IMG/VR virus record: IMGVR_UViG_3300036760_000306
Span: 1 to 64,000 of that record
Direction: 5' to 3' (one strand)
Length of the DNA: 64,000 nt
Origin: a virus
Under the pieces are notes generated by a model, which saw only the letters and a program-made list of their open reading frames with translations, was not told where the DNA came from and did no database searches. Shown piece after piece: positions 11,197-62,235 of the stretch (its first letter is position 1; every line of letters begins with the position of its first letter). The translations under genes and the position numbers were made by a program.

Positions 11197-12312
11197 ATGG
11201 TGGATACCCTGAGTCGCCGAGTTGCGGAGCGGTGGTTAATCGCCAAGGCTTCTCGTGGTGTGACGTTGCAGCCTGAGTACGATAAGGCGCTCAAAGCGCT
11301 TGAGGGTGGTGACTACAAGCCCATCGTGGTTTTCGGTAAGAAGGTCATCGAGATCATCACGCCCGGTGGTGGGCTTTTGCCTGCGGACTGGTTCGGGGCT
11401 CTTGGGGTTGCGAAACGCAACGCAATTTCCACCCTCCGTAAGAAAATCCTCGCTTTTGACCCCGGGAGCTTCAACCCTGGGGATTTAGAAAAGCCCGGGA
11501 TACGAGCGTACCTCGTTATGGAGGTGCAGAGCTGGGGCAAGGCGATCCGTACCCTTGAAATCGCGACCGCTGTAGGCGATACGGAACGCGAGATCAAGCA
11601 CGGCCCTTTTACGGTTATCCCCGTTCCGGGTGTCACTCAGGCACAGCAGAACGCAGCGCTCGATGCGCTAGACGCAGCGGCAGACAAGATTCGGGCGAAG
11701 TTCCCCAAGGTGCTTTACGGCAAGATATTCTTGGCCACGCACCTTTCTCGCAAAACGGTGGCTCATTACGTCGTGGATAACGACACGGTTCACTTGGATG
11801 TCAACGCCAACAAGAAAATCGGGGACATCTACACGATTTGCCACGAGTTCGGGCATCGCTTTGACTACAAGTTCCTTGACCGGGATCTGAAGAACCAGTT
11901 TTGGAAGCTCTCGACCCGCAAGATCTACGAGGTCATTGAGTTCGATTCCAAGTTGCGTGAGCAGGTAGCTGACGAGGTGGTGTCTCTCGCGAACGAGAGA
12001 GTGTTGGGTAGGCCTTTACCGAAAATGTCTTCTGAGTTGGTTGCGTGGCTCAAGAGTCCGGATGGCCCGAACGACATTAAGCGTTCTATTGGTGAGTACC
12101 TGACCGGGAAAATGGACGAGAAAGTTCTCCACGCGGAAGCCAAGGGCAAAAAAGACGCCAAGGTTATGACCGACAAAGTGTTGCACGGGCCCCTTTATGT
12201 TACGGAGTACGGCAAGACCAACCCTGGTGAGAACTTTGCTGAGGCGTTTGCCCATTACGTGTTGGGTATGAACATGGCTCCCGAACTCGTGGAGATCCTG
12301 TCACAAGCCTAA
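11197..12312 (+). CDS. Zincin metallopeptidase-domain protein (MPTase/ATLF-like) with N-terminal tag motif
   Basis: ICHEFGHRFD (HExxH) plus TEYGKTNPGENFAEAF; N-terminus LSRRVAERWLIA. Confidence 0.75.
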   Translation: MVDTLSRRVAERWLIAKASRGVTLQPEYDKALKALEGGDYKPIVVFGKKVIEIITPGGGLLPADWFGALGVAKRNAISTLRKKILAFDPGSFNPGDLEKPGIRAYLVMEVQSWGKAIRTLEIATAVGDTEREIKHGPFTVIPVPGVTQAQQNAALDALDAAADKIRAKFPKVLYGKIFLATHLSRKTVAHYVVDNDTVHLDVNANKKIGDIYTICHEFGHRFDYKFLDRDLKNQFWKLSTRKIYEVIEFDSKLREQVADEVVSLANERVLGRPLPKMSSELVAWLKSPDGPNDIKRSIGEYLTGKMDEKVLHAEAKGKKDAKVMTDKVLHGPLYVTEYGKTNPGENFAEAFAHYVLGMNMAPELVEILSQA

Positions 12313-12350
12313 GGATTCTTTTGTCACGTCCCTAGGGAGAGGTTGATCAG

Positions 12351-12674
12351 ATGACGAATCCAGCAAAAGCATTCCAAGAAGCCCTCGATCGTCAAAAGGT
12401 TGGCTCCAAGCAACTCGACCCCCGGGTCATCGAGCGTATTCGCCACTTGACCCACGGGAACCACACCTCTGAGTCTTACGTGGCAGGCGCTGAGGCGCTT
12501 GGAGAAAAGCACTTGGCGGACAAGTTCAAGCTCATCCAGCAGCTCGTCAAGCTTGAGGGGCACCGGCCTAGTGGGCTTGGTGACTACCAGTACAATTTGT
12601 ACCGGGAAATGATGACCCAGGCGGAGCGGACGCTTGACGAGGCGGCTTTCAAAGAGTTCTACGCTTCGTTCTGA
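12351..12674 (+). CDS. Hypothetical protein with MTNPxKAFQ leader
   Basis: GGAGAGG RBS; N-terminus shared with the 38276 ORF. Confidence 0.6.
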   Translation: MTNPAKAFQEALDRQKVGSKQLDPRVIERIRHLTHGNHTSESYVAGAEALGEKHLADKFKLIQQLVKLEGHRPSGLGDYQYNLYREMMTQAERTLDEAAFKEFYASF

Positions 12675-12692
12675 GGGCGCACTTCGGAACTT

Positions 12693-12699
12693 GGTGTAG
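12693..12699 (+). promoter_or_regulatory. GGTGTAG element, leaderless spacing
   Basis: TAG at 12697, ATG at 12709 (12 nt); no SD. Confidence 0.65.
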
Positions 12700-12708
12700 T
12701 ACCGCTTC

Positions 12709-15700
12709 ATGGCGGCCCCTAAAGAAGATGTCGTAGGCAAGCACGAGAAGGCTTACGAGTTCCTGAAGCAGGTCCGGGCGAGCAAGACCGTTACGCTCAA
12801 ACCGACCGCTATGCTGCGGTCGGAGATCGTTGGGCTGGACGGCATGACGCAGCCGCTCAAGATCAGGTACTACCAGGTGCAGGCCATCATGCACCTCTTG
12901 ACCATGAAGCGCATGGTTCTTGGGGATGCCACCGGCACGGGCAAGTGTGTCACAGGTGATACCATGATCTTGACTGATCGTGGGTATGTACCGATTCGAG
13001 ACCTGGCTCCAGACGTTGAGCTACAGGCCGACACAGCTTACGAGATAGCACCTGTTTCGGTTTGGACAGGATCCGAGATGGCTCGGGTCAAATGTTTCTA
13101 CTGGAACGGTCTTGCAAAGACCCGACGCCTGCGGACTCACTCTGGGTTCGAGATTGAGGGTAGTCTAAACCACCCCGTGTTGGTGCGTAACACAGAGGGT
13201 GAAGAGGTTTTCAAACGGTTGGCGGATGTGGCGGTGGGCGACCAGTTGTGTGTCTCCAGGTCTCTTGCCCCCTTCCCAACAGCAGAGCCTAAACTCCCCC
13301 ACAACTCGGATTTGAATGGGCCAAGAACTAAACGGTACGCCGTTCCTGAATGCTTGAGCCCGTCACTGGCAAGGCTGTTAGGTTATGTTGTGGCTGAGGC
13401 ATGGAGCAATTCCTCAGCCAATCTAATTGTGACGCAGCACCGAGAGATAAACCCAGAGGCGCACGACGACATCCGTTCGCTGTTTCTTGAGTTGTTCGGT
13501 TGGTCTGGTAATCAAGCGGCCAAAACAAGAGACATGGATGTCAATGTGTCTAGCACGCACATTAGGCGCTTCTTTCTAGATTGCGGGGTACCCGAAACAA
13601 CATCGCACTTCAAAGACATCCCCTGGTGCATCGGGTCAGCCACACGAGAGTCAACTAGGCAATTCCTTCGTGGTCTGTTTGAGGGGGAGGGTTCAGTTGA
13701 TCTTAGTGCTGGTGGGTTAGAGTTTCCGTCCTCTTCGGAACGTTTGGCAAGGGGCGTGCATCTGCTGCTTCTTCGTTTTGGTATCGTCTCTGCCCTTCGA
13801 CCGAAGTACGTCAAAAAGTACAACCATGTGTACTGGCGCGTCACTATGTTTGGGGACGCCGCTCGATTGTTCGCATCAGAAATTGGGTTTGTCTCTACTC
13901 GCAAACAAGAAGCCCTGACCAAAGTTCTGAATCGCCCTAGCAATTCTAACAAAGATGTTGTGCCGCACACCGCTCGACAGGTGCAAGCTCTTAGGGCTGC
14001 CTTGCTGGCAAATGTGACTCGACATGGATCCAATGCTGTTCGCACTGGCTCAGGGTTAAAACCCTATGGGCGATCGTTCAACAGCACCCTCTCCCATATC
14101 GGTTTGAAGTACCGTAACCCAACCTTCAGGTTCCTGCGGGTCTTACTCCAAGCCGCCAAGGACAAGGGGTTAGAGGCTATTCCAGCTTATGCTGATTTAC
14201 ACCGCGTCGTAGCTAACCACCATTTCTACGAAGCCGTCTCAGAAGTTACGGACGGGGAAGACTATGTGATGGACCTTGAGGTCGATCACCCCAAGCACTG
14301 CTTCGTCGGGAATGGTCTGATTAACCACAACACCCTCGTCCTGATCGCGTCGCTTTGCTACGCCTGGGACAAGGAGCCGACCAACAAGGGCGTGGTGGTG
14401 TGCCCCAAGTCAGCTCTCCGCCAGTGGGAGGCCGAGTTCGTGAAGTTCTCGGTGGGCATCAAGACCTTCCTGGTGGATGGCTCCCCTCAGGAACGCAAGG
14501 CGGTCTACGAGGCCTTCCAGGCCCACCCAACGACCCCTGGGAGCGAGAAGGCGGTGCTCCTGATCGGTTACGCCCCGCTGGTCCGGGATTGGAACGTTGG
14601 GTCTACCAGGCCCTTGCTACCCAGCGGGCAGCCCAACATGAAGGTGCCCCAGACTCCCGGACTGCTCTCAGGCATCATGGGGTCCATCCCGAACCTGACC
14701 GTCACGTTTGACGAGGCCACTGCCTTCAAGAACACCAAGACCAAGACGTGGCAAGTCGCCTCTGAGCTGTCTGCGTACGCGAACCGTTGTTACGGCCTGA
14801 CCGCGACCCTGTTGAAGAACAACCTGATCGAGGGTTTCGCGATCTTCAAGGTCATCTACCCGCAGGTCTTCACCACCATCACGGCGTTCCTTCGGGATTA
14901 CTGTGTGACCAAGATGCAGCCCGTGGGCGGGGGCCGGAAGATCCCCATCGTGGTGGGGTACAAGAACTTGGAAGCGTTCCGAGCCCGCATCGACATGTTC
15001 TTCCTGGGCCGGGCCAAGCACCTGATCTCGGACGAGCTGCCCAAGCTCATCACCAAAGAAGTTCAGGTTGACCTGTCGGAGGCCGAAGACGCCAAGTACA
15101 TCGAGGCTTTGACCGGGATCCTTCAGTTGGGTGACGGGCAGATCAAGGACTACGAGGAACACAAGAAGCTCGTGGCCCTGATCTACTGCCAGCAGACCGT
15201 GGATTCGCTGTCCTTGCTCAAGTACAAGGAGGGTGATGAACTTGAGCTAGGGCTTTACCACGACGAAATCGTCAAGGTAGAGGGCGTGGGGTCCAAGGAG
15301 CAGGCGTTGCTGGACCTTTTGGCTGAGGAGTTCGATGACGAGAAGGTGATCGTCTACACACGCTTTGCCTCTCTCGTGCCCCGGCTTCAAGAGTTGTGCA
15401 AGAAGGAAGGCATCGAGTCGGTGGCGGTGACGGGTCAGGTGGTGGACACCAAGGCCAACCCGGCTCGTCAGAAGGCCCAGCAGGCCTTTCAGGACCTCAC
15501 CTCGAAGGTCCGGGTCATCTTCATCACGGACGCGGGCTCGGAGGCTATCAACCTTCAGGCGGCATCGGCCATGATCTTCTACAACGCCCCGTGGAGCTGG
15601 GGCAACTACGTCCAGCTTCTGGGTCGGCCGATCAGGATCGGGTCACCGCACCAGCACGTGGTGGCGGTGCATCTTGTGGCCCAGAGGCCTAAAGCCAAGG

Positions 15701-34393: not shown

Positions 34394-34903
34394 ATGACGA
34401 CTCTGGCTCAACGTGTTGTTGATCGTTACTTGACGGCTAACGCCCCAGGAGAATACTACCCTAAGTATTGGATTGAGGATTTCGTGCATGAGAAGACTGT
34501 GCGTCGATTGACGTTACCCAACACAAATTGGGGCATCGCAATTGCACATAGCGAACGTTTGCAGGTTATCTGGGCGGACATCGTAGTTCGTTTCAAGCTC
34601 AAACAGAAGTTGACTCGGGAGCACCCGGACAACAAAGAAGATTGGAACGCCGCTGAGGGTGCCCTAGAGGCGTTCTTCAAAAGCGACACTGAAACTGCGG
34701 GTGTCATCTGCCAGGAGCTGTTCGACAAGGAACTACCCTATGCTCTTGGTGAGCGCATTGGCGCAATTATTCGTAGGGGACTCACGCGCAAAGAAGTCTC
34801 TACTCTAGCGAGCCTTCTCAGTGGATCTCGTACAAAGGATATCCTAGAGGGTATGGCTAAGTTATTACTAGGGGCTGCGGTATCACACTTATTTGGGCGC
34901 TGA
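34394..34903 (+). CDS. Hypothetical protein with N-terminal tag motif
   Basis: Begins MTTLAQRVVDRYLTA. Confidence 0.65.
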   Translation: MTTLAQRVVDRYLTANAPGEYYPKYWIEDFVHEKTVRRLTLPNTNWGIAIAHSERLQVIWADIVVRFKLKQKLTREHPDNKEDWNAAEGALEAFFKSDTETAGVICQELFDKELPYALGERIGAIIRRGLTRKEVSTLASLLSGSRTKDILEGMAKLLLGAAVSHLFGR

Positions 34904-35194: not shown

Positions 35195-37516
35195 ATGCCG
35201 AGAGAGCCCCAAATACCCCGTTGCAACTTCTGTGGTCGCCCTCGCAATGAGGTCAAGCACCTCATTGGAGCGCCGGACGGGGCGAACATTTGTAACGGCT
35301 GTATCACCGTTACCTCAGCAACTATCGCTGATGTCGAGCGCAAGGCCCCAGGGCCAGGGACCAAGGTCTCGGGACCGCTCAAGAAGCCCAGAGAAATCAC
35401 AGCATTCGTGGATGAGCATGTAATTGGCCAGGATGCGGCCAAGCGGGAAATTGCCATCGCGGTCTACGAGCACTACCGCCGTCGGGAAGTGGATAAGAGC
35501 AAGAACGGCGTGATCATGCTCGACGGGGAAGCGGTCGAGATCGAGAAGTCCAACATTCTGTTGCTTGGCCCGAGTGGGTGTCACAGGAAGGGCCAACTGA
35601 TCCTCATGTGGGACGGCACCCTACAAAAGGTGGAAAAAATCCGCAAAGGCGATCGTCTTATGGGGCCTGATAGCACCCCCAGGTTGGTCCAAGAGTTACA
35701 CAGCGGTGTTCAGAGTATGTTCCAAGTTACCCCTGTAAAAGGGGAGCCGTGGGTTGTCAATCAGGGGCACATTCTAACTTTGATCCGAACAAGTCGCAAG
35801 AGTCACGGCCAGTATCGGAAAGTCGCTGAGTTGGTGGACGTTTCGGTAGAAGACTGGTTGAGCTGGTCTAAAACGCAGAAGGCAGCCCACAAGTTGCTTC
35901 GAGTGGGTGTCACGTTTAGGGCCAACACCCAAGCACTGCCCTTAGAGCCCTACTTCTTGGGGGTGCTCCTTGGGGACGGTGCTATCACTAGCACTCCTAG
36001 AGTCACAACTGTAGACCCGGAGATTCTGGCTGAGTTGTTCCGTCAAGCAGAGCGGTACGGGTTGAAGGTAGTTCTGTGCAAGCAGAAAGCGAAGTGCCCT
36101 TCGTACAATATCTGTGGGACAAAGGGCGGTAAGCCCAAAGAAAACCCGATCACGGGTAAGCTACGGTCTTTGGGTTTGGCGGGGAAGTCCTGCGGGTTCA
36201 AATTCATACCTCAAATTTACCGGACTGCCTCTGAGGATGATCGCTTACAGCTCCTAGCTGGCCTCCTAGACACTGACGGTCATTTAGGCTGCAATGGCTT
36301 CGACTTCATCAGTAAAGCTAGGCTTCTTGCAGAAGGGGTGGCTTTCATCGCCAGAAGTTTAGGTTTAGCTGCCTATCTAAGGCTCTCTAAAAAGAGGTCA
36401 CAGCGAGGTACAGAAGGCACTTACTACCGTGTCTCTATCTCGGGGGACACTGATCGCATACCCACCCGTATCCCCCGTAAAGTAGCAACCCGTCGTAAGC
36501 AGACTAAGAGCGTGCTTCACACAGGCTTCACTGTAGCCGCTTTACCGCCTGAAAAATTCTACGGTTTTAGCGTTAACCGGGATCACCGTTACCTGCTTGG
36601 GGACTTTACCGTCACCCATAATTCAGGCAAGACGCACATTGCCCGAACGATTGCCCGGTTGCTGGACGTGCCGTTCTACGTCGGGGACGCCACGAAGCTC
36701 ACGAGTGCGGGCTACGTCGGGGAGGACGTGGAGTCGCTGCTTCAGGGGCTCCTGGCGGACGCTCAGAACGATATTGAGAAGGCACAGTGGGGCATCATCT
36801 TCCTGGACGAGTTTGACAAGCTCGCCCGCAAGGCTGGGTACGGTGCGTCTGGGATGCGGGACGTGACGGGGGAAGGGGTCCAGCAGGCGTTGCTCAAGCT
36901 CATCGAGGGTGGGCAGGTCGCGGTCCCCCGGGGCATGGGCTCCAGGGCGGTGTCTGGGATGACGCCCTCTGACGTGGTGGACACCCGGAACATCCTGTTC
37001 ATCTGTGCTGGGTCTTTTGCGGGTATCGAGCCCGTGATCGAACGCAGGCTCAACAAGTCCACGGGCCTTGGGTTTGGCAAAGAGCACCGGAAGCAGCACG
37101 CCAAGTCCGATCTGTACCGTGAGGTCCGGGTCGAGGACATTGAGGAATTCGGTCTGATTCCGGAGATCGTGGGCCGTCTGCCTGTGATCACCAGTACCCT
37201 GGAGTTGACCGAGGATGAGCTGATCCGCATCCTGACCGAGCCCAAGAATGCGATTTGCAAGCAGTTCCGGGCCCTGTTCTCGTTGGATGGGATCGACCTC
37301 CAGTTCGACCCCGAGGCATTGCGGGCGGTGGCTCAGAAGGCTCGGAAGCGGTCCACGGGTGCCCGAGCGTTGCGGGCTATCCTCAAGGAAGTGCTCAAGC
37401 CCTACTCGTACGAGGCCCCCGACAACCTGGACATTGCGGTTATCCGCATTACCCAGGAAGCTGTCGAGACTCCCGGGAAGGCTCTTGTGATGCGAAAAGG
37501 GGTTGGGACGGCTTAG
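35195..37516 (+). CDS. clpX: ClpX AAA+ unfoldase containing an intein
   Basis: CNFCG..ICNGC zinc domain, VIGQ, KSNILLLGPSG|SGKT, AGYVGEDVE, FLDEFDK, RDVTGEGVQQALLK, LGF loop, TGARALR; about 425 aa after splicing. Confidence 0.95.
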   Translation: MPREPQIPRCNFCGRPRNEVKHLIGAPDGANICNGCITVTSATIADVERKAPGPGTKVSGPLKKPREITAFVDEHVIGQDAAKREIAIAVYEHYRRREVDKSKNGVIMLDGEAVEIEKSNILLLGPSGCHRKGQLILMWDGTLQKVEKIRKGDRLMGPDSTPRLVQELHSGVQSMFQVTPVKGEPWVVNQGHILTLIRTSRKSHGQYRKVAELVDVSVEDWLSWSKTQKAAHKLLRVGVTFRANTQALPLEPYFLGVLLGDGAITSTPRVTTVDPEILAELFRQAERYGLKVVLCKQKAKCPSYNICGTKGGKPKENPITGKLRSLGLAGKSCGFKFIPQIYRTASEDDRLQLLAGLLDTDGHLGCNGFDFISKARLLAEGVAFIARSLGLAAYLRLSKKRSQRGTEGTYYRVSISGDTDRIPTRIPRKVATRRKQTKSVLHTGFTVAALPPEKFYGFSVNRDHRYLLGDFTVTHNSGKTHIARTIARLLDVPFYVGDATKLTSAGYVGEDVESLLQGLLADAQNDIEKAQWGIIFLDEFDKLARKAGYGASGMRDVTGEGVQQALLKLIEGGQVAVPRGMGSRAVSGMTPSDVVDTRNILFICAGSFAGIEPVIERRLNKSTGLGFGKEHRKQHAKSDLYREVRVEDIEEFGLIPEIVGRLPVITSTLELTEDELIRILTEPKNAICKQFRALFSLDGIDLQFDPEALRAVAQKARKRSTGARALRAILKEVLKPYSYEAPDNLDIAVIRITQEAVETPGKALVMRKGVGTA
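35579..36622 (+). mobile_element. Intein with LAGLIDADG domain in the ClpX Walker A
   Basis: CHRKGQ...TVTHN|S; PYFLGVLLGDG and LLAGLLDTDG; 348 aa. Confidence 0.92.
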
Positions 37517-37540: not shown

Positions 37541-38227
37541 ATGGATGCTATTTCGTTGATTGCGTTGCGTATCGCCGCTCGGTTCCAGAAGATTGCGTAC
37601 CAAGAAGGCAAGTTCTTGGGGCGGGATTGCCGCCTGACTTGGAGCAGGCACGGTTGGACCCTCGAAGAGCTGCCGATCAAGGGCAAGAAGAAGCTCAAGG
37701 TAGCGTCGTTGCAGAACCCCGTTACCATGGGTTGGGCTAACTTCGATGCCTACATTGACGCGAACATTCTGCAAGATGCCAGACTGAGTGCTTCGGATTC
37801 GTACGATAGCATCAAGCAGAAGATGCTTGATGCCTACGAGTTGGCGGCAGAGGTGTCCATCAACAAGATGACTCCCGATCAGGCCAAGAAGACGCTTTGG
37901 CTTCGTGAACTTAAGTGGTACGAGGATGAGGTTCACTACCTCAAGATCACCCCCGAGAACACGGAACCGTTCGAGGCCGAAGGTAAAGATTACACGATCA
38001 AGGTCACGTGGACCAAGTTTTCGACCTACTCCCCGGACTCTGACTTCCAGCAATCGGATCCGCACTACACGCAGTACGCAGAGTCCTCGGCCCAAGGGGC
38101 ACGTAGGCTGTACCAGATCTTGAAGGCTGACCCGAATGCTCTCAAGAGCGTCCCTTGGAAGAACCTGGGCGACTGGCTCACCAAGAACAAGGTCTCGTAC
38201 AAGATTCATTTCTCACAGTGGGGCTGA
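37541..38227 (+). CDS. Hypothetical protein with N-terminal tag motif
   Basis: Begins MDAISLIALRIAARFQKIA. Confidence 0.7.
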   Translation: MDAISLIALRIAARFQKIAYQEGKFLGRDCRLTWSRHGWTLEELPIKGKKKLKVASLQNPVTMGWANFDAYIDANILQDARLSASDSYDSIKQKMLDAYELAAEVSINKMTPDQAKKTLWLRELKWYEDEVHYLKITPENTEPFEAEGKDYTIKVTWTKFSTYSPDSDFQQSDPHYTQYAESSAQGARRLYQILKADPNALKSVPWKNLGDWLTKNKVSYKIHFSQWG

Positions 38228-38749: not shown

Positions 38750-38773
38750 ACAGTGGGACTGAGGCCAAATGAC
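38750..38773 (+). repeat. 24-bp direct repeat of 38215-38238
   Basis: ACAGTGGGACTGAGGCCAAATGAC vs ACAGTGGGGCTGAGGCCAAATGAC, 1 mismatch. Confidence 0.9.
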
Positions 38774-40187
38774 AATCGAAACAACCGCCGAACTAGTCCT
38801 ATCCCGCTTTGAGGAAGGCAAACCAGCCGATCCAACGGAGAACATGAGTCCTGAGGACGCCAAGACGTGGCGTGAGCAGACGGATGAGCACAAGGACGAG
38901 TTCAAGGCTGCGGCCAAGAAGCCTTCGCGCCCTTCGGTTGAGGAAACGCCGGAGGAGAAGCGCTTCACCCGTGAGCGTGAGCAGGTAGAGGAAGCGCTCT
39001 CAGCTCTGCGTGAAGGGATTGCGGACCGCTTCCCTATTCCGGAAGATCGTAGGCACCCTCCAGAAGCGCGTGAGGTGCTCAACCATTACCTTCTTGCAGA
39101 CCGTCTGCAACACAAAGCCTTCATGCAGTCCGTGGGCGGCAATTCAGACGAGCCGTCGGTCCAACGGGAAATGTTTAGCCTCTTGGCTAAAGCGGAGGCG
39201 GAGATCAAAAAGGCTAAGCGCTTGCTGGCCGAGGTGCCGTCCGAGAAGAAGGCTGCTGCGTCTTCCGTGGTGACCCGTTTCCTGACGGCGGATCAGGACA
39301 AAGCGGCCCCTGAGCAGGTGGACAAGTATTTCGAGCAGGTCAAGAAGGACAACCCGTCTTACGATGACTCGCAGGCCTACGCGACAGCGTGGTCCATCTA
39401 CTGCAAGCACAAGAACCCGGGTTCAGATTCGTGTCACCAGGACGAGTACCTGACGGGCAAGACGGCAGGGGACCGCTATTTGGAGGCAGCCTGGAAGGCC
39501 CCCGCGATCAATCAAGCACTCGCCAAGCTGATTGCCAAGAAGGTGGATCGCCATTTCGTCTCGGACCTCTTGAACGAGAAGCTTTCAGGGCGTAGCTGGG
39601 AAACCAAGCTGAAAGAGGCTATTGGAAAGGCTGTGGCCCCCACGCAAATGCGTGATCAGGTTGAAGCCCAGCCTGCGATCAAGAAGTGGTTGGCGGATCT
39701 CTCGGACTCGGAGCTTTCAAAGATCCGGGACCTGGTTGAGGAGACGCTCAACCACGGTAAGGCTGAACAGTATAAGTCCAAACCGGAGGCTTGGAAAACG
39801 GCCGACGCCAAAACGGCAGGGTTCGGCTACGGTGTTGCCACGTTGACCGTGTTGTTCGTTGAGGGCCGTAAGCCCGTCCCGTTCAACATCGACACCATCC
39901 AAGACATCAACCACATCACGATCCCGATCATCGGGGACGATGGTGAGGAACACGACGTCCAACTCAAGGTCGTGAGGCACCAGTCGTCTGGGCCGCTGAC
40001 CCAACCGCAAGAGAAGTTGGGCTGGAAGCGTGAAGTCCTGGTGGAGATACAACACCCGGTGGATGAGGGTGGCTCGCCTCAGACCTCAGCCCGTGCGGCA
40101 CTCACGGCCTTGGCTCAGGTGGGCAAGCAGCACGGCTTCAGGGTTGAGCCGGTGCAGCGTGGCTACAAGCCCGAGACTCGCAAATAG
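38769..40187 (+). CDS. Modular hypothetical protein with several tag motifs and a ChaB-like segment
   Basis: ELVLSRFEE, SSVVTRFLTA, KTAGDRYLEA and KTADAKTA at apparent module borders; SQAYATAWSIY resembles the ChaB AxxxAW pattern. Confidence 0.65.
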   Translation: MTIETTAELVLSRFEEGKPADPTENMSPEDAKTWREQTDEHKDEFKAAAKKPSRPSVEETPEEKRFTREREQVEEALSALREGIADRFPIPEDRRHPPEAREVLNHYLLADRLQHKAFMQSVGGNSDEPSVQREMFSLLAKAEAEIKKAKRLLAEVPSEKKAAASSVVTRFLTADQDKAAPEQVDKYFEQVKKDNPSYDDSQAYATAWSIYCKHKNPGSDSCHQDEYLTGKTAGDRYLEAAWKAPAINQALAKLIAKKVDRHFVSDLLNEKLSGRSWETKLKEAIGKAVAPTQMRDQVEAQPAIKKWLADLSDSELSKIRDLVEETLNHGKAEQYKSKPEAWKTADAKTAGFGYGVATLTVLFVEGRKPVPFNIDTIQDINHITIPIIGDDGEEHDVQLKVVRHQSSGPLTQPQEKLGWKREVLVEIQHPVDEGGSPQTSARAALTALAQVGKQHGFRVEPVQRGYKPETRK

Positions 40188-46249: not shown

Positions 46250-46630
46250 ATGACCTTCCACATTCGACATAGCGATACCCGCTTTCATACGACTATGTGT
46301 GGGATCCCGTTGTCCTTTCGTGGCCCCATTCTTGGGCAGGATCCCAACTGTGTGTCTTGCGAACTTGCCGGGAAGGCTTGGGATCGGAAGATGGCTCAAG
46401 CGTACGTTGAGTATTGGCGGAAGTACCCAAGAACTAGAATTCACCGTTGGGCGGATCATTGGGCACACTTTGGGGACGGTGATTACGAGGTCTTAGACTG
46501 GTTCCCTATCGGGGTGGCTACGGCGGGTCTTGGCATTCCGGTGGTGATGGCTATGAAACGAGTGGCGCGTGTAGTGCTACGCTTTCAAAAACCCATTAAG
46601 CGCCCGCCTTTCATTCCGCCGGATGCGTAA
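46250..46630 (+). CDS. Hypothetical protein
   Basis: 126-aa ORF with H...CG...CxxC. Confidence 0.5.
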   Translation: MTFHIRHSDTRFHTTMCGIPLSFRGPILGQDPNCVSCELAGKAWDRKMAQAYVEYWRKYPRTRIHRWADHWAHFGDGDYEVLDWFPIGVATAGLGIPVVMAMKRVARVVLRFQKPIKRPPFIPPDA

Positions 46631-46649: not shown

Positions 46650-46945
46650 CTACGATCCGCTGACTCATCCGTTTCGAGATTCTGTTTCCGCCTGGACCTT
46701 TGAACAGAAGCCTTTGAGCCCTGGGGTTAGCTCGCCCCGATCGAGCATGTGATCGGTCTCAATGCGCTCCTCCGAAGTACGACCTTCGTCCCTGCAAGGG
46801 TAGCATCGCCCTGTGCCCAGATGGTGATCAAGGGTCGCATGCGTGCATAGGCAGGTTTGCTGAAGGGTTGCTACACCACTTAGGGCCGACGGTACGTGGG
46901 CGGGTTCTCTCGCATGAAGCGGTCTACGATCCGCTGACTCATCCG
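46650..46945 (-). repeat. 22-bp exact direct repeat (46650-46671 and 46924-46945) encoding RMSQRIV on the - strand
   Basis: CTACGATCCGCTGACTCATCCG present twice. Confidence 0.9.
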
Positions 46946-47190: not shown

Positions 47191-47219
47191 AACCGATACA
47201 CTTCGGAACTTCCTTTTCT

Positions 47220-47387
47220 GGCACACGCACTACTGCGTCTCTTGACCGTATTGACAACGACTTGGGGTACACACTAAACAACGTTCAATGGGTATCCAAA
47301 AGCATCAACCTTATGCGTCGGACCCTAACGATACCGGAGTTCAGGGTTTGGTGTAAGAAGGTGGCAGAATGGCAATCACGTATTTAA
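47220..47387 (+). pseudogene. HNH endonuclease C-terminal remnant
   Basis: ASLDRIDNDLGYTLNNVQWVSKSINLM with no N-terminal part. Confidence 0.7.
47350..47356 (+). promoter_or_regulatory. GGTGTAA element
   Basis: TAA at 47354, ATG at 47369 (15 nt). Confidence 0.45.
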
Positions 47388-49761: not shown

Positions 49762-50238
49762 ATGAAGCAGGATTCCCAGCCCGCTGATCCAGCAGCTTCA
49801 CCCCCTGTCGTGCCGTTCTTGCCGTTGTTTTCCTACGGTACGCTGCGCCACCCCGAGGTTCAACTGCACCTGTTCGGCCGGACTGTGAAGTCGGAAGATG
49901 CCGTACTTCACGGTTATCGGGTGGTTGCGGGACCCGATGGCTACTTCTTCATTGAACAGGACGAGACCACAGAGACTGCCGGAGAACTTCTGTTCTTGAC
50001 TCAGGAGCAGGTCTATCGCGCCGATCAATGGGAGGAAGTTCCTCTCTATGTGCGAAGCAGGGTCACGGTCCAGCTCAGCAACGGGGACTCCGTGAGCGCC
50101 TGGGCCTACTTTCGGCCAGAGATGACCGGTATGCTGCAACAGCGTGTGGCTCACCGCTTCCTGATCGCCTCGTTCAAGCCGGGCGACTACATCTTGTTCG
50201 GGAAATTCCGGAACAAGCGGGCTCGCGTGATCATATGA
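49762..50238 (+). CDS. Gamma-glutamylcyclotransferase-like (AIG2) protein with a C-terminal tag motif
   Basis: LFSYGTLR, ADQWE..Y.R, AWAY; followed by MLQQRVAHRFLIAS. Confidence 0.8.
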   Translation: MKQDSQPADPAASPPVVPFLPLFSYGTLRHPEVQLHLFGRTVKSEDAVLHGYRVVAGPDGYFFIEQDETTETAGELLFLTQEQVYRADQWEEVPLYVRSRVTVQLSNGDSVSAWAYFRPEMTGMLQQRVAHRFLIASFKPGDYILFGKFRNKRARVII

Positions 50239-52754
50239 CCCCCGAGGCCATTCTGGAGTCACAGCAGTTGGAAGCGGCGGAACGGGCTCTCGTTCAGAGG
50301 GTGGCCCAGCGCTACTTTGAAGGCTCTCGGACACTAGTGGGCGGTCGTCTAGCTCTTCCCATTAAAATGGCTAATGGTATCAATAACTGGGCCAAGGCAG
50401 TCTTTGGGGCCTGGGTTGTAGCGCACACTAAAAAAAGCCTTCTGACCGCTACAATGCCAAAAAGGCAAGCTGAACTTCAGAAGGTGCTCAACGCTGCCAA
50501 ACAAGATGCTAAAGGGCGGGCACCAGTCCCTCCCGATCAGGTGACCAAGACGTTTCGAGTGGCCCTCGATGATTTGCCGTCCGGGTATCCGGTAGACCGC
50601 ATGACGAAGATGCTGAGTGCGCTCCCAGTGACCCTGGACTTCACTGGGAAGCCCTACCCGCACGAGGGTGCTTACACGGCGGGTTACTTCGATGTTGAGT
50701 CTCGCGACCTTGTCTTACACCTTCATGGTACTCTGAACCCACCCTCTGATGTTACGGATTATCAATTCCGTCTAGGGGAGATGCAGACCGTTCTAGAGCA
50801 TGAACTACGGCATATGGTGCAAACCTTGCTTGGTGACGCCTTGGGGAAATCTATACTCAAGGATGACTGGGAAGTGGGCTCCCCTCACAGGTCGGACCCA
50901 GACCATGAGTTACTAAAGAAACACCCTGAGGATCAGTATTTCTTGGAGCCTTGGGAATTCCATACTTGGGTTGGACAGGCAAAAGATCTGTTTCTTAATC
51001 AAGTTAGCTTTCGTCCCGAGTACCTGAAAAAGCTCTATAGTGACGAGGAGGTGGTGCTGGAACCGACACGAAAAGAGTTCAATCTTTTCGTTGGTGATCC
51101 AAAGCCGACTCCAGCGGGAGTCCAGAATCAAGGGGTTTACACCTCTCCGTTTTTTGCGGCCTTGTGGCGGCACGATCGTAAACGTTGGCAAAGAGCGGTT
51201 GCCGAGTTATGGCAACAACTTTCATCGGAGCGGGCTCTCGTCCACAAGGTGGCTCAGCGCTACCTCGAAGCGACTGTCCCTCGGTACGTGTACCATTGGA
51301 CGAAAGCGAAGGCTCTACCCAGTATTTTAAGCAGGGGGCTTCTCCCCATGCCCTCCCCTGCCGCAGAAGGACGGGTTGTTTGGTTGTCAGCCAACCCTGA
51401 CAAATGGCGGGAGTTCGTGGAGAAGCAACACGAGGCACCTGGGAACGAAGCGGTACTACTACGCATCCCTGCAAGTGCAATTCCTGACTTGCAGGGATTG
51501 AAGCAGTCTCCGAACACCTTTGTCACAAACCGACGCATACCGCCAAGTGCTATTGAGGTCGTAACACCCAAGGAAGCGGCGACCGCAGCAAGGTTTAGGC
51601 GTCTGGCCCGTGAGGTACGGATCGTCATCGATCGTGATGCCACGCTTGTAGTCCGGGCCAAGCACCACGACACCTCGATAGTTGGAACCTTTGAATCAAC
51701 GGTCTCTCTGTACCGGATCTTTGACGGTGAAGAATTGGTGCGGTTGGCTCGATCAGGACGTTTCACCGGAGGCACCTACTCGGTTGGTTCAGAACGCGCC
51801 CACGGTGCTAGTTGGGGCGAGAACATCTCCGAGATAATCGGGTGGGGCAACCGTCAACGCGGTCACCGGCTTGGCGACGACTTGTTCTTGGCCAAGATCG
51901 ACGCTTCGGGCCGACGCTTTTACCACATGACCCCGGAGGTCGAGTTTCAACCTGAAGGTGAGTCCCTACAACCCGCCACCATGGATGTATCGAAGTGCAG
52001 CACCGGCCTTGGATGCAGTGTGGTCGATGTCCTGTTCAATGACGCGACGTTCTACCGCGTAGATCCGGGTGGGCAGATTGAACCGCTGTCCGATCAAGAA
52101 CTCCACAGCTACATGAAAGCACGGCCCCAGAAGGATGTGGATCTTCGAGCGGTCAGTCGCGTCATGCACTCCGGCACCATCTACGGGGTTGATGTTAATG
52201 TGGTGCTCGACCAAGAAGCACCCGATCACGAGCTACAGCCGCCATCCCCCTACTACCGCACTTGGTATGTAGAAGTGACGAGGGTGCCCGCCGAAGAGAC
52301 GGTGATCCTGAAGGGTGCCAAGACCCTAGAGCTTGCGGTCCATAAGGCTAAGAATCTCTTGAAGGGTACCACCGCTGATGATTGGCAGGGTGCTCGCCCT
52401 GTGTCCTTACTACCCAAGGCAGCCATGGATGTATGGCGCAAGCGTGAGCAGATCTGGCAGCAACGAGCCCGTTTGCAAAGAACGGCATCTGGGGGAGTAT
52501 CGACGGCAACCAACAGCTTCAATACTAAGCCAGGTAAACGGGTGACCCTGAGTGCCTATCACTCCCTCGCGGGTGACTTTGAAGGTGTAGCGGAATCCGC
52601 TGTGCCTTATGTGTACGCCCCCAAGAAGTTCAAAGAACTGGCTCCCACCATCTATGCAGCGGTGGCGAAATGGTTCAAGGGGGCACACGTCCGATATGCT
52701 GGGGATTCCTTTGCTAGCAATCCCATAGGGGAAGTCGAGGCGGCGCTGTGGTGA
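50235..52754 (+). CDS. Polyvalent protein: zincin peptidase, ART/Tpt1-like domain and further modules
   Basis: ATGA overlap start; LEHELRH + YFLEPWE; YHWT..SILSRGL.P..VWLS..VLLRI..RIPPSAI; modules separated by ERALVxxVAQRY. Confidence 0.75.
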   Translation: MTPEAILESQQLEAAERALVQRVAQRYFEGSRTLVGGRLALPIKMANGINNWAKAVFGAWVVAHTKKSLLTATMPKRQAELQKVLNAAKQDAKGRAPVPPDQVTKTFRVALDDLPSGYPVDRMTKMLSALPVTLDFTGKPYPHEGAYTAGYFDVESRDLVLHLHGTLNPPSDVTDYQFRLGEMQTVLEHELRHMVQTLLGDALGKSILKDDWEVGSPHRSDPDHELLKKHPEDQYFLEPWEFHTWVGQAKDLFLNQVSFRPEYLKKLYSDEEVVLEPTRKEFNLFVGDPKPTPAGVQNQGVYTSPFFAALWRHDRKRWQRAVAELWQQLSSERALVHKVAQRYLEATVPRYVYHWTKAKALPSILSRGLLPMPSPAAEGRVVWLSANPDKWREFVEKQHEAPGNEAVLLRIPASAIPDLQGLKQSPNTFVTNRRIPPSAIEVVTPKEAATAARFRRLAREVRIVIDRDATLVVRAKHHDTSIVGTFESTVSLYRIFDGEELVRLARSGRFTGGTYSVGSERAHGASWGENISEIIGWGNRQRGHRLGDDLFLAKIDASGRRFYHMTPEVEFQPEGESLQPATMDVSKCSTGLGCSVVDVLFNDATFYRVDPGGQIEPLSDQELHSYMKARPQKDVDLRAVSRVMHSGTIYGVDVNVVLDQEAPDHELQPPSPYYRTWYVEVTRVPAEETVILKGAKTLELAVHKAKNLLKGTTADDWQGARPVSLLPKAAMDVWRKREQIWQQRARLQRTASGGVSTATNSFNTKPGKRVTLSAYHSLAGDFEGVAESAVPYVYAPKKFKELAPTIYAAVAKWFKGAHVRYAGDSFASNPIGEVEAALW

Positions 52755-55700
52755 TCCAAGCACGAGTAGCAGAGCGCTTCGTTAGGGTGTCGGCGTACTC
52801 CGAAGACACCCTAGAGGTTGTTGCGGCCGGTCTTGCTCTACTGATCGCACAGAACTACATCGTCACCAATCCCTTCTTCGATGAGAAGGAGATCCGAACC
52901 TACCTGCTGTTGCGCAAGCAGTTCCACGGGGACTTCGTTCAAGCGTGCCTGGACCTGGCGAATGCCTTTGAAGAGGGCCAGTTCGGGCAGAGCGTGCAAC
53001 CGGCTGTCCCAGCTCTACGGGCTATTGGGCATCTTGGGGTCAAGCAGGATCAGCAAGCGATCCGACAACTCGCGAGAGCATTCCGAGGACTCAAGCACCT
53101 CAAGTACAAGGATGTCGAGAACCCGAAGCTCATGCGGCTCATCCTGATGGCCCGCAGACTTGATGTCACCGCCCCGATCGACGCATGGTCGTCCGGTGGC
53201 AGGGATATCAAGGATTTCCTGGAGAACCTGGTCAAGATCCCAGCAGTGCCCACGAGGCTCCGAACACTTCTTCGTAAAGTCATTAAGATGCCTGTGCCCG
53301 GCAGTACACTCACCGAGAACGCCAATCCGGGTGCTTGGTTTGAGATGCCTGCTGAGGAGAAGCAGAATCTTCGGGAGTTGACTGAGAAAGTTGAACAAGA
53401 GCAGCTTGACATCTGGGAGAAGCACAAAGACTCGGATGCCAATGAGCGCATGGCCGCTTACCAGAGTGCGGCTCGACGGCTCCAGAAGATTCAGAGCATC
53501 GCGGGTGTGAACGTTGGGATCATCAAACGCGAGGATAAGGTCCCGCTCGATGCCTTGCTGAAGAAAGAGTCGGGGCTCGAAACCGATGGGCCTACCGAGT
53601 ACACGCGACTCAAGCTTGAGGACTATATCAAGAAGATGGGTACCTACGGTGCCCAACGGAAAGAAGGCGACCCCCTTCCTCGTGAGATCAGCAAGCTGCT
53701 GACCAGCCTTCGTAAGGCTAAGACGTTCCCAACGATGCAGCGCGTGATCAAAGACGCGGTGGATCGTCAAGTGCTGGGCCGTGGGGCTGTCGAGGACGTG
53801 GACCAAATCCTCAAGCAGGCGAACAAGAACCGGGCGTTGAAAGAGGGCAAGCCCCTTACGCCACTTCAGTTCAGCCCACAAACATTGGAGCAGTTCAAGG
53901 CAGCGCACGACACGGGACCTGTGGAGTTCGACCCTGACTTCACGGAAGACGAGAAGCAGCAGTTGCTGGGCCGGGTTTCACGGGCCATCAGTGACTTGGA
54001 GGGTGTCTACGGGGAGGGCTTCTGCGGTAAGCATGCCAAGAAACTCGCGTTCCGTTTCAACAAAGGGTACAGCGGGATGGCATCCGCTCACTACTTCACG
54101 TGGGACGATCGCAAAACGTGGCAACCCAGGGTGACGTTCGGTCCGGAGTACGAAGGACTCTTGGCTCACGAGCTGTCGCACTACCTTGAGGACTTGCTGG
54201 CGTACCAGATCCAGAAGCAGACTGAACCTGAGCGTATCGAGGCCCTCAAGATCAAAGGGATCGAGGGCGGCCCGGGTGTTCTGTTTTCCAACACAGGCGT
54301 ACCCTTGAGTCGCTTCGCTGAGGCGGGTTCCCTGGCGAGCTATCGGGACCACCTGGGCAAGACGATCCCAGAGTTCGTTGATTTCATCGACGCTGTACTG
54401 GCCACACCGGACTACAAGCGCTGGGAGGACAAGCTTGGATCGGCTTACGACTCAGCGCTGCCCAAGGCGATCAAGGCGCTGACCGGCATGAACTATTACG
54501 ACCTGCCCAAAGATCACCCGTATTACAGTCTGATCGACAAAGCACGGTACCGCTCTGATCTACCGCCGGAAGTAAACGCCGAGGCACAGAAGCAGTACAA
54601 GGCTATGATGGGCGGCGACGATCGCAAGCTCAGTTACTACAACAGCTCCACCGAGGTTTGGGCCCGGATGTGCGAGCAGTACGTATACAACCGGCTTATC
54701 GACGCGGGGATCTCAAATCCGTGGCTCACTCAGATGAACTACGAGGATGATGTTTTCATGGACGAGAAGACCTTCGATACCAAGCTACGTCCTATCATGG
54801 ACAAGATCTTTGCCAAGCTGAAAGGCCGTAAGCTTATTGCAGGAGTTCCGATGAGCCCCCTACGTGAACGACTAGCGGACCGCTTCCTACTCGTGGCCCG
54901 AGTGGCGGCCCGCTACAAAGAGGCAAAGTACAAGAGCAAAAAAGTAGTGCCCAAAGCCAGCGGCAAAGGCACTACTGAGGTGTTGGTCTACTCGGATCGG
55001 CAGATAGCCCTACGTAAAAGCAAGAAAAGCAAGCGCCTTCAGAAGCTCAGTGGGCACATCGACAAGATGATGGCCAAGGTCAAGAAGGACTTGACCTCTA
55101 GTGATCAGAAGACTGCACGTGTTGCGCTCGCCATAATGTTGATTAATGAAACGTACGAGCGCGTTGGAAATGATACGAGTGCTGCGGGCGAGAACTCAGA
55201 CACGGATTCCACCCCGCACCTTGGGGTGACCGGGTGGTCAAAAAAGAACATCAAGTTCACGGGCGGTAAAGCCAAGATCTCCTACCGTGGCAAGAGTTCT
55301 GTAGACCATGTGAAAATCGTGGAAGACCCGGCGACGGTCAAGGCACTCAAAAAAGCCTATGACGAATGTGAAGGGGACAAGGACTGCATCTTCCACTGGG
55401 CAGATGGGAAAGTCACGGCCAAAGAAGTCAACGAGGAGTTACGATCCTTTGGGGATTTGACTGCCAAGGATTTGAGGGGGTGGCACGCCAACAGGCTCAT
55501 GAAAGAAGAGCTGGCTAAGGTACGAAAAGGCAAGCTACCCGAGGATAAGAAGGAGCGGGAGAAAAAGCTCAAGGATGAGTGGAAGAAAGCCTTGGAGGTC
55601 ACGGCGGAGGAAATCCAGCACGAACCTGGCACCCTTCAGGGACAATACCTGGTAGACTCAATGCGTGAACAATACCTGAAGGACGGTACCATAATCGAAC

Positions 55701-55933: not shown

Positions 55934-55968
55934 GGAGGTTAAGGAGATGCTCCTTGGTGAACCGGGGA

Positions 55969-56136
55969 ATGGCGTCCAAAGTCCTGACTCGTTACCTCAC
56001 GGCCAGGGATGACCAAGGGGTGCATCGTTGGTCCGAAGAGGACCGGCGAAAAGCCAGTGAAGTTGAAAAAGAACTCAAACAGCTAAAGCAGACTATCGGT
56101 AAGCTTGCATCCGACCTTTTGCGGCTAGACCGCTAG
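55969..56136 (+). CDS. Small protein with N-terminal tag motif
   Basis: MASKVLTRYLTA followed by a short coiled coil. Confidence 0.6.
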   Translation: MASKVLTRYLTARDDQGVHRWSEEDRRKASEVEKELKQLKQTIGKLASDLLRLDR

Positions 56137-59395: not shown

Positions 59396-59399
59396 AGAA

Positions 59400-60992: not shown

Positions 60993-61048
60993 ACCAGGGC
61001 TTTTGACAAGAACAAAAACCCCGGATCCCCTAATCGTCCCCGCTAGGC

Positions 61049-61399
61049 ATGGACAAGGATCTGGACCGCTGGAATCGCAAACAAGCGGCATACCGTCGTA
61101 GAAAAGCCCTACAAGAGCGGGCCATCAATCATTTGGGCGGTAAGTGCCAGATTTGCGGTTACGCCAAGTGCCTGGCAGCCTTGGACATGCACCACACCGA
61201 TCCTATGGGTAAGGACTTCAACATCTCAGCGGGCTTGACCTCGTGGGAACGTGTTCTACCTGAGCTGGAGAAATGCGTGCTTTTGTGCTCAAACTGCCAT
61301 CGGGAAGTCCATGATGGGCTTCACCCCGGGTATCTCGAACTCGATGGTGTTTGGGGTTCTAGGTACGACACCGAACTGGAAACCGAGGACCTTCATTAG
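61049..61399 (+). CDS. Small HNH endonuclease
   Basis: GGKCQICGY..ALDMHH...CVLLCSNCHREVH. Confidence 0.85.
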   Translation: MDKDLDRWNRKQAAYRRRKALQERAINHLGGKCQICGYAKCLAALDMHHTDPMGKDFNISAGLTSWERVLPELEKCVLLCSNCHREVHDGLHPGYLELDGVWGSRYDTELETEDLH

Positions 61400-61834
61400 A
61401 TGCTTGCCTATTGGTTGAATGCTCAAGAGTGCCTGGATCTCCCGCTTGCTGAACTGCGGCGGAACGGGATTGTGTACGAGTCGATTCCTGTTCAGGACCC
61501 TTGGCCACATTTGAATCGAATCAAAGCGGAGCATGGGTATGTGGCTGAAGACCTGGTGGACTTGAACGCGACTCGACCGGACTTCGAGAACCTAGGCCGA
61601 GCGTTCAAGCGTGAACACTCTCACGAAGAAGATGAGGTCCGCTTCATCGTCTCAGGGAATGGCACTTTCGACATCCGGTCAAACGACGACTGCTGGATGC
61701 GAGTTTGGGTTGAGCCTGGGGACCTGATCATCATCCCGGCTGGCCGTCACCACCTGTTTCATTTGACCAGCGAAGGCATCGAGGCCATCCGGCTGTTCAA
61801 GAACGAGGCGGGTTGGGTGCCTAGCTATCGTTAG
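61400..61834 (+). CDS. mtnD: Acireductone dioxygenase (ARD cupin)
   Basis: EHSHEEDEVRFIVSGNGTFD, GDLIIIPAGRHH.F, AIRLF....GWV. Confidence 0.9.
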   Translation: MLAYWLNAQECLDLPLAELRRNGIVYESIPVQDPWPHLNRIKAEHGYVAEDLVDLNATRPDFENLGRAFKREHSHEEDEVRFIVSGNGTFDIRSNDDCWMRVWVEPGDLIIIPAGRHHLFHLTSEGIEAIRLFKNEAGWVPSYR

Positions 61835-62235
61835 CGACCCCAGCTAAGCCTAGCTGAGTACGACATCGTTACCACTATGTCGTAAGCTTCCGATGGATCT
61901 TGAGTTGAACCCATGAAAGAAGCGGTAACGGTAACGTACCAACCGCCTTTTGAGAACGGAATTTCAAAGGTCCATTGTTTGCCGCTGGTCAGGCTGGGCG
62001 AATTTCTGTTGCTATAGTATTCTGCCCGGTAGTTCTGGATGGGGATCCCAGCAGCAGAGAGTCTGTCGAAGATCGCTGTAATCGGCTTCCAGTCGCTATC
62101 TCTGTGGACCCCGCTTGTCCCCGTCTGGGTAAGCTTCCTCAAGTAGGTTTCTGCCCGAGCCCTGGTCAAGCCTTCTAGGCCCTGATCTTGAGCTTGCAGG
62201 TAACGGAGGGCTACTTTTTGAGTGGTAGGGTCCAT
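61831..62235 (-). CDS. Hypothetical protein with N-terminal tag motif
   Basis: Begins MDPTTQKVALRYLQA. Confidence 0.65.
   Translation of the reverse strand: MDPTTQKVALRYLQAQDQGLEGLTRARAETYLRKLTQTGTSGVHRDSDWKPITAIFDRLSAAGIPIQNYRAEYYSNRNSPSLTSGKQWTFEIPFSKGGWYVTVTASFMGSTQDPSEAYDIVVTMSYSARLSWGR

Follow-up and report, generated by a model that had tools for sequence, protein, structure and literature searches.

A portable terminal peptide on unrelated proteins in a clade of jumbo phages, a candidate label for loading enzymes into the head

A short peptide motif recurs on unrelated proteins

Proteins of very different kinds encoded in a 64-kb stretch of jumbo phage DNA (positions 1 to 64,000 of IMG/VR virus record IMGVR_UViG_3300036760_000306, from here on called the window) share a motif of about 12 residues, phi-x-x-[RK]-V-A-x-R-[YFW]-L-x-A, to which we refer as the tag (Table 1). 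This motif is real, under selection at the protein level, terminal, portable, and spread across a clade of related uncultured phages. Of the functions considered, that of an address label is best supported by the anatomy of the tag and by the gene context in relatives, from which we infer partner, packaging, cleavage, and injection: as the head assembles, each module would be docked by its tag to a partner shared by all of them, and the enzymes would then be packed along with the DNA and reach the next host, a proposal to which we give about an even chance. The window is the first part of a 116,457-bp contig (57% GC) with an estimated completeness of 24%, which suggests a genome of roughly 0.5 Mb.

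A preliminary description of the window had quoted 13 peptides as copies of one motif. All 13 are present in the translation, 0 to 45 nt from where they had been placed, and 12 of them belong together, while the remaining one, AELVLSRFEE (38787), receives no motif score and is part of a separate repeat. The strict pattern [RK][VIL][AVLST]xR[FYW] occurs 15 times in 170 open reading frames (ORFs) of the contig (36,578 aa) where 1.77 copies are expected, and none of 500 within-protein shuffles reached 15; under the same shuffling, a longer pattern has 10 copies against 0.17 expected. Because both patterns were composed once the copies were known and are thus post hoc, we built a 12-column scoring matrix from the 15 copies and tried it on other genomes as an independent test. 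Scanned in all 6 frames, the contig contains 22 sites with a score of at least 12, of which the 15 scoring at least 19 are the training copies themselves, so that their scores are circular; 13 of them lie inside the window. Nothing outside these 15 reaches 19 in any frame or place, and none of the copies at or above this score falls into the replication or nucleotide-metabolism genes of the window, which had been described as free of the motif. Measured against shuffled controls, the motif stands above background in the contig, and its matches are also biased towards protein termini across 5 genomes.

Pairwise DNA identity among the copies is 0.47, and at third codon positions it is 0.34 where the residues agree (162/470), which shows that the peptide and not a DNA repeat is under selection. 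The flanking sequences diverge immediately past the motif. At the DNA level, a degenerate pattern run on 5 genomes was too noisy to be useful, with counts close to those of a reversed-pattern control except in G004, and no promoter-like word common to the 15 regions upstream of tagged genes and their neighbors was found.

Table 1. Copies of the tag and associated features in the window (scores are those of the 12-column matrix).
Feature	Position	Strand	Score	Location and context
J-domain protein	10061..11194	+		Pfam DnaJ 3.7e-8; directly upstream of the tagged zincin
Tag	11209..11244	+	25.8	Residues 5-16 from ATG 11197; N-terminus of zincin-type metallopeptidase, gene 11197-12312
Tag	34403..34438	+	30.5	N-terminus (ATG 34394) of 169-aa protein, gene 34394-34903; no Pfam or PHROG family
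ClpX with intein	35195..37516	+		Pfam zf-C4_ClpX, AAA_2, Hint; candidate alternative tag reader
Tag	37559..37594	+	19.9	N-terminus of 228-aa protein, gene 37541-38227, directly after ClpX
Module of ~40 residues, not the tag	38787..38900	+		N-terminal in 38769-40187; BLASTP matches to G003 152845-154437 and G001 240859-242244
Tag	39255..39290	+	21.6	Internal, residues 163-174 of modular 472-aa protein 38769-40187
Weak, doubtful copy	46559..46594	+	12.7	Low score although the strict pattern is matched; near C-terminus of ORF 46250-46630
Tag	46907..46942	-	23.6	C-terminal, 8 residues before stop of ORF 46880-47281
Tag	50134..50169	+	31.0	22 residues before stop of gamma-glutamyl cyclotransferase-like protein, gene 49762-50238 (Pfam GGACT 1e-15)
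Tag	50289..50324	+	27.3	18 residues past ATG 50235 of multidomain protein 50235-52754; HExxH zincin follows
Tag	51237..51272	+	30.0	Junction in 50235-52754 between zincin part and possible Tpt1/KptA-like part; R-T-A at 52479
Tag	52754..52789	+	23.4	N-terminus of polyvalent protein 52748-55933 (zincin with HExxH, LPD1 at Pfam 3e-6, type IB topoisomerase at Topoisom_I 2.6e-21, Zn ribbon)
Doubled tag	54860..54925	+	19.6 and 26.9	LPD1/type IB topoisomerase junction of 52748-55933
Tag	55969..56004	+	26.0	N-terminus of 55-aa ORF 55969-56136
Tag	62191..62226	-	24.7	N-terminus (ATG 62235) of 134-aa protein, gene 61831-62235; no Pfam or PHROG family

Distribution across related phages

Nucleotide searches with the contig found no relative among GenBank phages, and the only phage relative in GenBank revealed by protein searches is the uncultured 485-kb record LR745208.1. 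Scanning viral contigs with a single zincin sequence gave no close relative, and an alignment-based scan of IMG/VR contigs yielded 47 loci. The tagged zincin has homologues on contigs as long as 620 kb. Five whole contigs of relatives (G001 to G005) were analyzed, representing phages of 0.3 to 0.5 Mb; G005 is complete (435 kb with terminal repeats) and G001 is 92% complete. Their capsid proteins of ~292 aa are 83% to 92% identical to each other though the genomes otherwise share few proteins, and we therefore treat these phages as one clade. By BLASTP, 22 of 175 contig ORFs have a match in G001 and 42 of 175 in G003.

A search of these related jumbo phages found the tag in 4 of the genomes. 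With the matrix at a score of at least 14, we counted 9 matches in G001, 12 in G002, 7 in G003, and 18 in G004, compared to means over 10 shuffles of 0.3, 1.3, 0.7, and 0.5, respectively. G005 has none (0.3 in shuffles) and instead carries N-terminal variants of the tag with Ala, Leu, or Thr in place of the second Arg (e.g., 130002-131603, 232083-232472, and 427476-429521), as expected if the tag and its putative partner had co-evolved. In the 47 loci, the strict pattern has 66 copies against about 15 expected, a count that is biased upward because the loci were picked via a tagged family and include 5 near-duplicate pairs. These copies also lie on many other proteins and at C-termini, and giant proteins contain 3 to 5 of them. 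Most of 31 aligned zincin homologues, with identities as low as 26%, retain the N-terminal motif, and the second Arg is present in at least 90%; in 2 longer fused forms the motif lies at an internal junction. The RNA ligase of Salicola phage SCTP-2 has no tag.

A motif that is a functionless product of chance, composition, or repeated DNA could be suspected given that the patterns were written after the copies were known and that Arg, Ala, and Val are common at 57% GC. This explanation is contradicted by the result of the 500 shuffles, the low third-position identity, the 7 to 18 matches against 0.3 to 1.3 expected in G001 to G004, the strong terminal bias, and a six-frame scan without any further site at 19 or above, and we give it next to no credence.

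Anatomy and predicted structure of the tag

Across 5 genomes, 59 matches were mapped onto the longest ORFs. No more than 40 aa separate 29 of them from the start, and 10 are at most 25 aa away from the stop, zones that make up 17% and 10% of positions by background, respectively. The other 20 are internal or at junctions, but at least 5 of these count as N-terminal once an ORF call that is too long has been corrected. One copy at each end is found in 5 proteins, namely 2 zincins, a third zincin and a type IB topoisomerase (Topo IB) in G004, and a Topo IB in G002. In an alignment of 57 copies, from which one sigma-factor-like helix was dropped as a clear false positive, the core positions are strongly conserved ([RK] in 51, Val in 52, Ala/Val in 49, Arg in 54, and Tyr/Phe/Trp in 51 copies).

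AlphaFold2 run on the zincin alignment gave a model with a mean predicted local distance difference test score (pLDDT) of 92.5 and a domain above 90. In this model the tag forms a helix over residues 3 to 16 at pLDDT 55 to 59, followed by a linker (residues 17 to 24) that is partly below 50. For a Topo IB with 2 tags, both termini are below 50 and are not paired with each other. A Foldseek search of the zincin model against the PDB gave no match at E<=0.001 and returned weak hits to generic zincins only. The motif is thus modeled as a portable, probably amphipathic helix of about 12 residues that would sit on flexible linkers at either terminus or between modules. Two other identities were considered and rejected. 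An integral helix of a shared domain is ruled out by sequences that diverge straight past the motif and by models that leave the tag unpacked, and a Tat or Sec signal is ruled out by 2 Arg residues that are 4 positions apart, by polar instead of hydrophobic residues thereafter, and by the existence of C-terminal and internal copies. A Tat signal peptide would have Arg-Arg in direct succession, then x-Phe-Leu-Lys, a hydrophobic stretch, and an Ala-x-Ala site, all of it at the N-terminus.

The doubled tag at the LPD1/Topo IB junction illustrates how such modules may be combined. Aligned with the N-terminal tags of free Topo IB proteins, its second copy shares with them the residues R, A, A, R, and Y (invariant in 6/6), and in all 6 cases the tag lies about 30 residues before the catalytic core irrespective of whether the module is free or embedded. 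Because of this constant position, the first half of the doubled tag most plausibly closes the LPD1/zincin module as its C-terminal tag, and the second half opens the Topo IB module as its N-terminal tag.

Tagged cargo and polyvalent proteins

The preliminary description had seen the motif on unrelated, cargo-like domains, and Pfam searches with the tagged proteins of the window and its relatives indeed returned many enzyme classes. Most frequent are zincin-like peptidases (HExxH with a downstream Glu-x-Phe-Ala-Glu segment). Others are Topo IB, RNA ligase, an inorganic-pyrophosphatase-type domain, a nucleotidyltransferase of the poly(A)-polymerase/CCA type, DRAT-like ADP-ribosyltransferase, GNAT, GGACT, a J-domain protein, and 2H phosphoesterases including weak Acb1-like matches. 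One ThyX and one clamp-loader-like protein with a match are probably due to chance or marginal. Many tagged proteins have no family, and for these Pfam at E<=0.5 gives sub-threshold hints alone (Tpt1 at 0.09 and the T4 scaffold family at 0.026). The first of these hints is all that stands behind the earlier label of the second half of 50235-52754 as similar to ADP-ribosyltransferases: a possible Tpt1/KptA match exists, but with E=0.09 the assignment is doubtful.

The repertoire of tagged cargo is that of polyvalent proteins, a class defined in a study whose passages used here propose that such proteins are packaged and injected and that they are processed by zincin or assemblin-like peptidases (Iyer et al. 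2017, PMC5512222). The protein encoded at 52748-55933 matches an architecture described in these passages with its zincin, LPD1, and Topo IB domains. In relatives, arrays of 2,000 to 2,800 aa (inorganic pyrophosphatase, peptidase, Topo IB, RNA ligase, and poly(A)-polymerase-like domains) adjoin the portal gene, and the giant proteins of loci L033, L037, and L042 contain 2 to 6 Pfam families each. In contrast, most modules of the phage studied here are separate genes that keep the peptide. The same passages of the published account cover domains and proposed processing, and in them there is no mention of a shared junction or terminal peptide (PMC5512222).

This organization could also mean that the helix is only a recognition element for a protease, zincin or head protease, which marks cuts in polyproteins and survives on single-domain proteins as a relic of gene fission. 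Copies do lie at the domain junctions of polyvalent proteins and are sometimes doubled, and zincins, for which processing of the polyvalent proteins that contain them has been proposed in the passages cited above (PMC5512222), are the commonest tagged cargo and often have a copy at both ends like self-excising viral proteases. Relics would be expected to decay, yet the N-terminal copy is kept in stand-alone zincins down to 26% identity and is invariant in 6/6 Topo IB modules. Clipping 2 to 17 terminal residues off a free enzyme would also have no obvious purpose, and AlphaFold2 does not dock the tag into the zincin's own cleft. Metallopeptidase clefts bind extended chains, and a helix of 12 residues would be an unusual substrate for them. 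We regard this explanation as unlikely.

The J-domain protein directly upstream of the tagged zincin brings up a different kind of partner. The same adjacency is seen in G003 (L001), the 2 genes are near each other in L010/L011, and a J-domain protein of G004 (171064-172095) has a tag at its own C-terminus. The tag could dock modules to a hub other than the capsid. Such a hub could arise from tags that bundle with each other and so rebuild a non-covalent multi-enzyme complex, or it could be a chaperone (host DnaK together with the J-domain protein of the phage) or the membrane, in which the helix would lie as an in-plane amphipathic anchor. The amphipathic character of the helix and its flexible linker at either protein terminus would be compatible with any such hub, and doubled junction copies would suit helices that pair. 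However, the N- and C-terminal tags of one protein do not pair in AlphaFold2 models, and the sharply conserved R-V-A-x-R-aromatic core (Arg in 54/57 and Val in 52/57 copies) makes a specific pocket in a protein more likely than lipid as the binding site. The tag is not followed by a hydrophobic stretch, and its C-terminal and internal copies exclude a Tat or Sec signal. Since a non-capsid hub would also leave the head-module position of multi-tag proteins (see below) unexplained, we see only an outside chance for it.

Head-module context and the case for head loading

The preliminary description had interpreted the motif as a portable address label, a protease site, or both, serving to load effectors into the head and to separate them for injection. 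Of this interpretation, a portable and selected peptide on unrelated cargo at termini and junctions stands, and head loading gains support from gene context, while a helix is a poor candidate for a cut site. In the address-label proposal, the tagged helix would bind one common partner in the assembling head, and the tagged enzymes would be packaged with the DNA and then delivered into the next host. In some relatives, enzyme modules are fused into one giant protein encoded between portal and protease with a tag at each junction, and in the phage studied here they are mostly separate genes with the tag retained at their ends. The head-maturation protease would cut at neighboring [KR]-T-A sites rather than in the helix.

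The position of multi-tag proteins in the head module is contextual evidence for head loading. In 3/3 loci examined (L033, L037, and L042), a large terminase gene is followed by the portal gene, a gene for a giant multi-tag protein, 1 or 2 small genes, and the gene for the head-maturation protease. G002 and G003 share the order of a large protein, a conserved 247-aa protein, the protease, a Gln/Asp-rich scaffold-like protein, a protein of ~220 aa, and the capsid protein. The first of these has 1403 aa and 3 copies of the tag in G002, where the portal was not located, and 939 aa in G003, where it follows the portal gene. Residues 2011-2103 of the L033 polyprotein match residues 43-143 of this post-portal protein of G003 (47% identity, E=4e-11), and the giant proteins therefore have the appearance of enzyme arrays joined to the front of a post-portal head protein. 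G001 encodes a 508-aa protein with a Topo IB core at 309.5-311.0 kb, just upstream of the homologue of the 247-aa protein (311.7 kb) and the protease (313.8 kb).

The companion pattern K-T-A/R-T-A had been described as a mark of module borders. All 4 sites exist (39459, 39795 with another at 39810, 52479, and 55709), but in tagged proteins the tripeptide is only weakly enriched. In G001 to G005, regions no farther than 12 kb from the capsid gene have a [KR]TA density 2.5 times that of the remainder (66 in 43,334 aa versus 394 in 636,525 aa; Poisson p=1e-10). K-T-A by itself ranks among the 15 most head-enriched tripeptides, most others being low-complexity, Gln-rich, or acid-rich. In the capsid protein it is conserved at a distance of about 18 residues from the N-terminus (5/5 genomes); it also directly precedes the tag in several copies and at 55709 coincides with the end of the Topo IB module in 52748-55933. 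The proteins densest in [KR]TA are scaffold-like or small head-module proteins together with the protein encoded at 38769-40187 (3 K-T-A sites). We consider it likely, by inference from these patterns only, that [KR]-T-A and not the helix would be the cut site of the head-maturation protease. At residues ~15-30 of the capsid proteins of G001 to G005, the conserved K-T-A is followed by a tag-like stretch rich in Ala and Arg.

Several results weigh against head loading. No recognized head gene was found in the 116-kb contig by Pfam and PHROGs searches, and the link to the head is therefore drawn from relatives that share few proteins with it. The post-portal protein of G003 has weak copies only (scores of 11 to 12), that of G004 has none at a score of 12 or more, and most stand-alone tagged genes in G001 to G004 are dispersed or lie in enzyme islands (e.g., G004 325-357 kb) and not in head modules. 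In tagged proteins, [KR]TA is modestly enriched, with 23 copies where shuffles have 13.5; the highest count in any of 300 shuffles is 24. After the tag, the 57 aligned copies show no conserved Glu two residues past a Leu/Ile, in contrast to the Leu/Ile-x-Glu motif at which the targeting peptides of phage T4 are cut. Among cultured phages, Tunturiibacter phage Tunturi_5 has the closest capsid protein (49% identity), followed by Bacillus phage G (39%). In 41 kb around the capsid gene of Tunturi_5 there is no sense-frame copy and one antisense match, and in the first 50 kb of phage G there is one weak match only (11.9). Because these cultured relatives lack the tag in the stretches covered, their virion data cannot be used to evaluate the head-loading idea. 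The antisense match in Tunturi_5 (6862, minus strand), the only strong one in this head region, lies opposite an annotated tail-terminator gene in a long GC-rich open frame and is probably due to chance. A complex prediction for the G002 protease domain, the scaffold N-domain, the capsid protein, and a 95-aa N-tagged protein (score 0.27, mark 0.32, without controls) counts neither way.

The window also encodes a conceivable reader of the tag in form of a phage ClpX. The tag could be a recognition signal for this protein, either as a degron that would limit the lifetime of early effectors with host ClpP or as a handle for unfolding. ClpX-type degrons are short and lie at either terminus, and the phage ClpX retains its zinc-finger domain, the GYVG pore loop, and an LGF loop that we take to sit where E. 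coli ClpX has its ClpP-docking loop. ClpX is flanked by tagged genes in the window, a tagged gene lies directly upstream of it in G003, and a homologue of its N-domain is found in 4/5 related genomes. It has further been suggested that phage ClpX may translocate unfolded proteins or aid virion assembly, and that BCS1, ClpA, or ClpX of phages may translocate proteins to be packaged into the head (Iyer et al. 2021, PMC7824862). In opposition to this explanation, G001 has 9 tags and no ClpX match at 92% completeness, though host ClpX could substitute, and the adjacency of tags and ClpX is not consistent in G002 and G004. A ClpP-family match is found only in G002 and G005 among the 5 relatives and not in the contig, and junction copies inside giant portal-to-protease proteins do not fit a terminal degron. 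Five further tag-bearing contigs have no ClpX match, a result that is uninformative because they are fragments of 8% to 32%. All in all, we think it rather improbable that the tag is addressed to ClpX, and the address-label proposal remains the one that we favor.

Other features of the window

Besides ClpX and the J-domain protein, Pfam searches assigned to the contig a replication set (SNF2 helicase, DnaB-type helicase with inteins, primase zinc finger, and family A polymerase), nucleotide enzymes, and the protein with LPD1 and a Topo IB core; PHROGs contributed little beyond Pfam. Inteins with LAGLIDADG or Hint domains interrupt the SNF2 helicase (12709-15900), the DnaB-type helicase (16780-21072, with 2 LAGLIDADG matches), and ClpX (35195-37516), and the head protease of G003 has an intein-like insertion, too. 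The window opens with an ORF of 1,286 aa (2-3862) without Pfam or PHROG match.

The module at 38787-38900, which starts with AELVLSRFEE, is acidic. In G003, tandem copies of it are found C-terminally in a 530-aa protein that is encoded close to the capsid gene, and the module may be another shared element that is related to the head. Around ~38190-38280, the last ~40 nt of gene 37541-38227 with its stop, a spacer, and an ATG are tandemly duplicated just before gene 38276-38734, and a similar spacer precedes 38769. The GGACT protein ends after its tag in a basic tail of ~22 residues (50170-50238), and the stop of its gene overlaps ATG 50235 of the next tagged gene; the genes from 49762 to 56136 look translationally coupled.

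Implications of a head-loading tag

If the tag were a label for head loading, the cargo injected by these phages would include anti-defense nucleases, phosphoesterases, a topoisomerase, peptidases, and the J-domain co-chaperone, and the latter could recruit host Hsp70 to refold the injected set. A conserved and position-independent tag would predict the injected proteome from sequence, starting with the 10 proteins that carry strong copies in the window, and would point to first-wave factors for host takeover or anti-defense among proteins without a family. It would also provide a handle for loading foreign proteins into phage capsids, and the variant of G005 could help to find the co-evolving partner. 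If the tag instead fed phage ClpX, it would be a degradation code encoded by a virus, which would be new as well.

Comparison with known systems

A full-text literature search with 6 spellings of the motif core found no paper with this string, and the systems closest to the tag resemble it in layout. Literature searches on capsid-targeting sequences and on the internal proteins of jumbo phages led to work on T4, SPN3US, and P1. To our knowledge, the choice of head proteins that are packed and delivered is known in detail only for T4 among large phages. The capsid-targeting sequence of T4 is a short N-terminal peptide of about 10 residues on IPI-III and Alt that is thought to bring them into the prohead and is removed by the prohead protease gp21, and its cargo includes host-modifying enzymes. 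Both systems feature a short peptide on unrelated proteins with a candidate protease site nearby. However, the T4 sequence is only N-terminal, whereas the tag is also found at C-termini, at both ends of proteins, and at polyprotein junctions, and there is no likeness in sequence.

Like the tag, signals for ClpX (N- and C-terminal degrons and the tail of SspB, which is bound by the ClpX zinc-finger domain) are short and occur at the ends of unrelated proteins, and a ClpX with this domain is encoded by the phage itself. The resemblance of Arg-Val-Ala/Val to the SspB tail covers, as we take it, only 3 to 4 residues, and the internal junction copies of the tag are not accounted for by such signals.

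The cargo-loading peptides of encapsulins and the encapsulation peptides of bacterial microcompartments are short, are connected by a flexible linker at either terminus (in microcompartments also between domains), and dock unrelated enzymes inside a shell. The shells of encapsulins have the HK97 fold that is also found in phage capsids, and the encapsulin peptides are bound in an extended form. The tag resembles these peptides as a short terminal element that is set off by a flexible linker in the AlphaFold2 models of both zincin and Topo IB. There is no likeness in sequence, and we draw an analogy of mechanism, not of membership, in which binding of the tag to the capsid is conjectural. By this analogy, one transferable peptide at either end of a protein might constitute a general, encapsulin-style cargo-loading code for the HK97-fold capsid of this clade with which dozens of enzymes would be packed and injected, and fused polyvalent proteins would be its covalent version cut at [KR]-T-A, a generalization that we put forward tentatively and at somewhat less than even odds.

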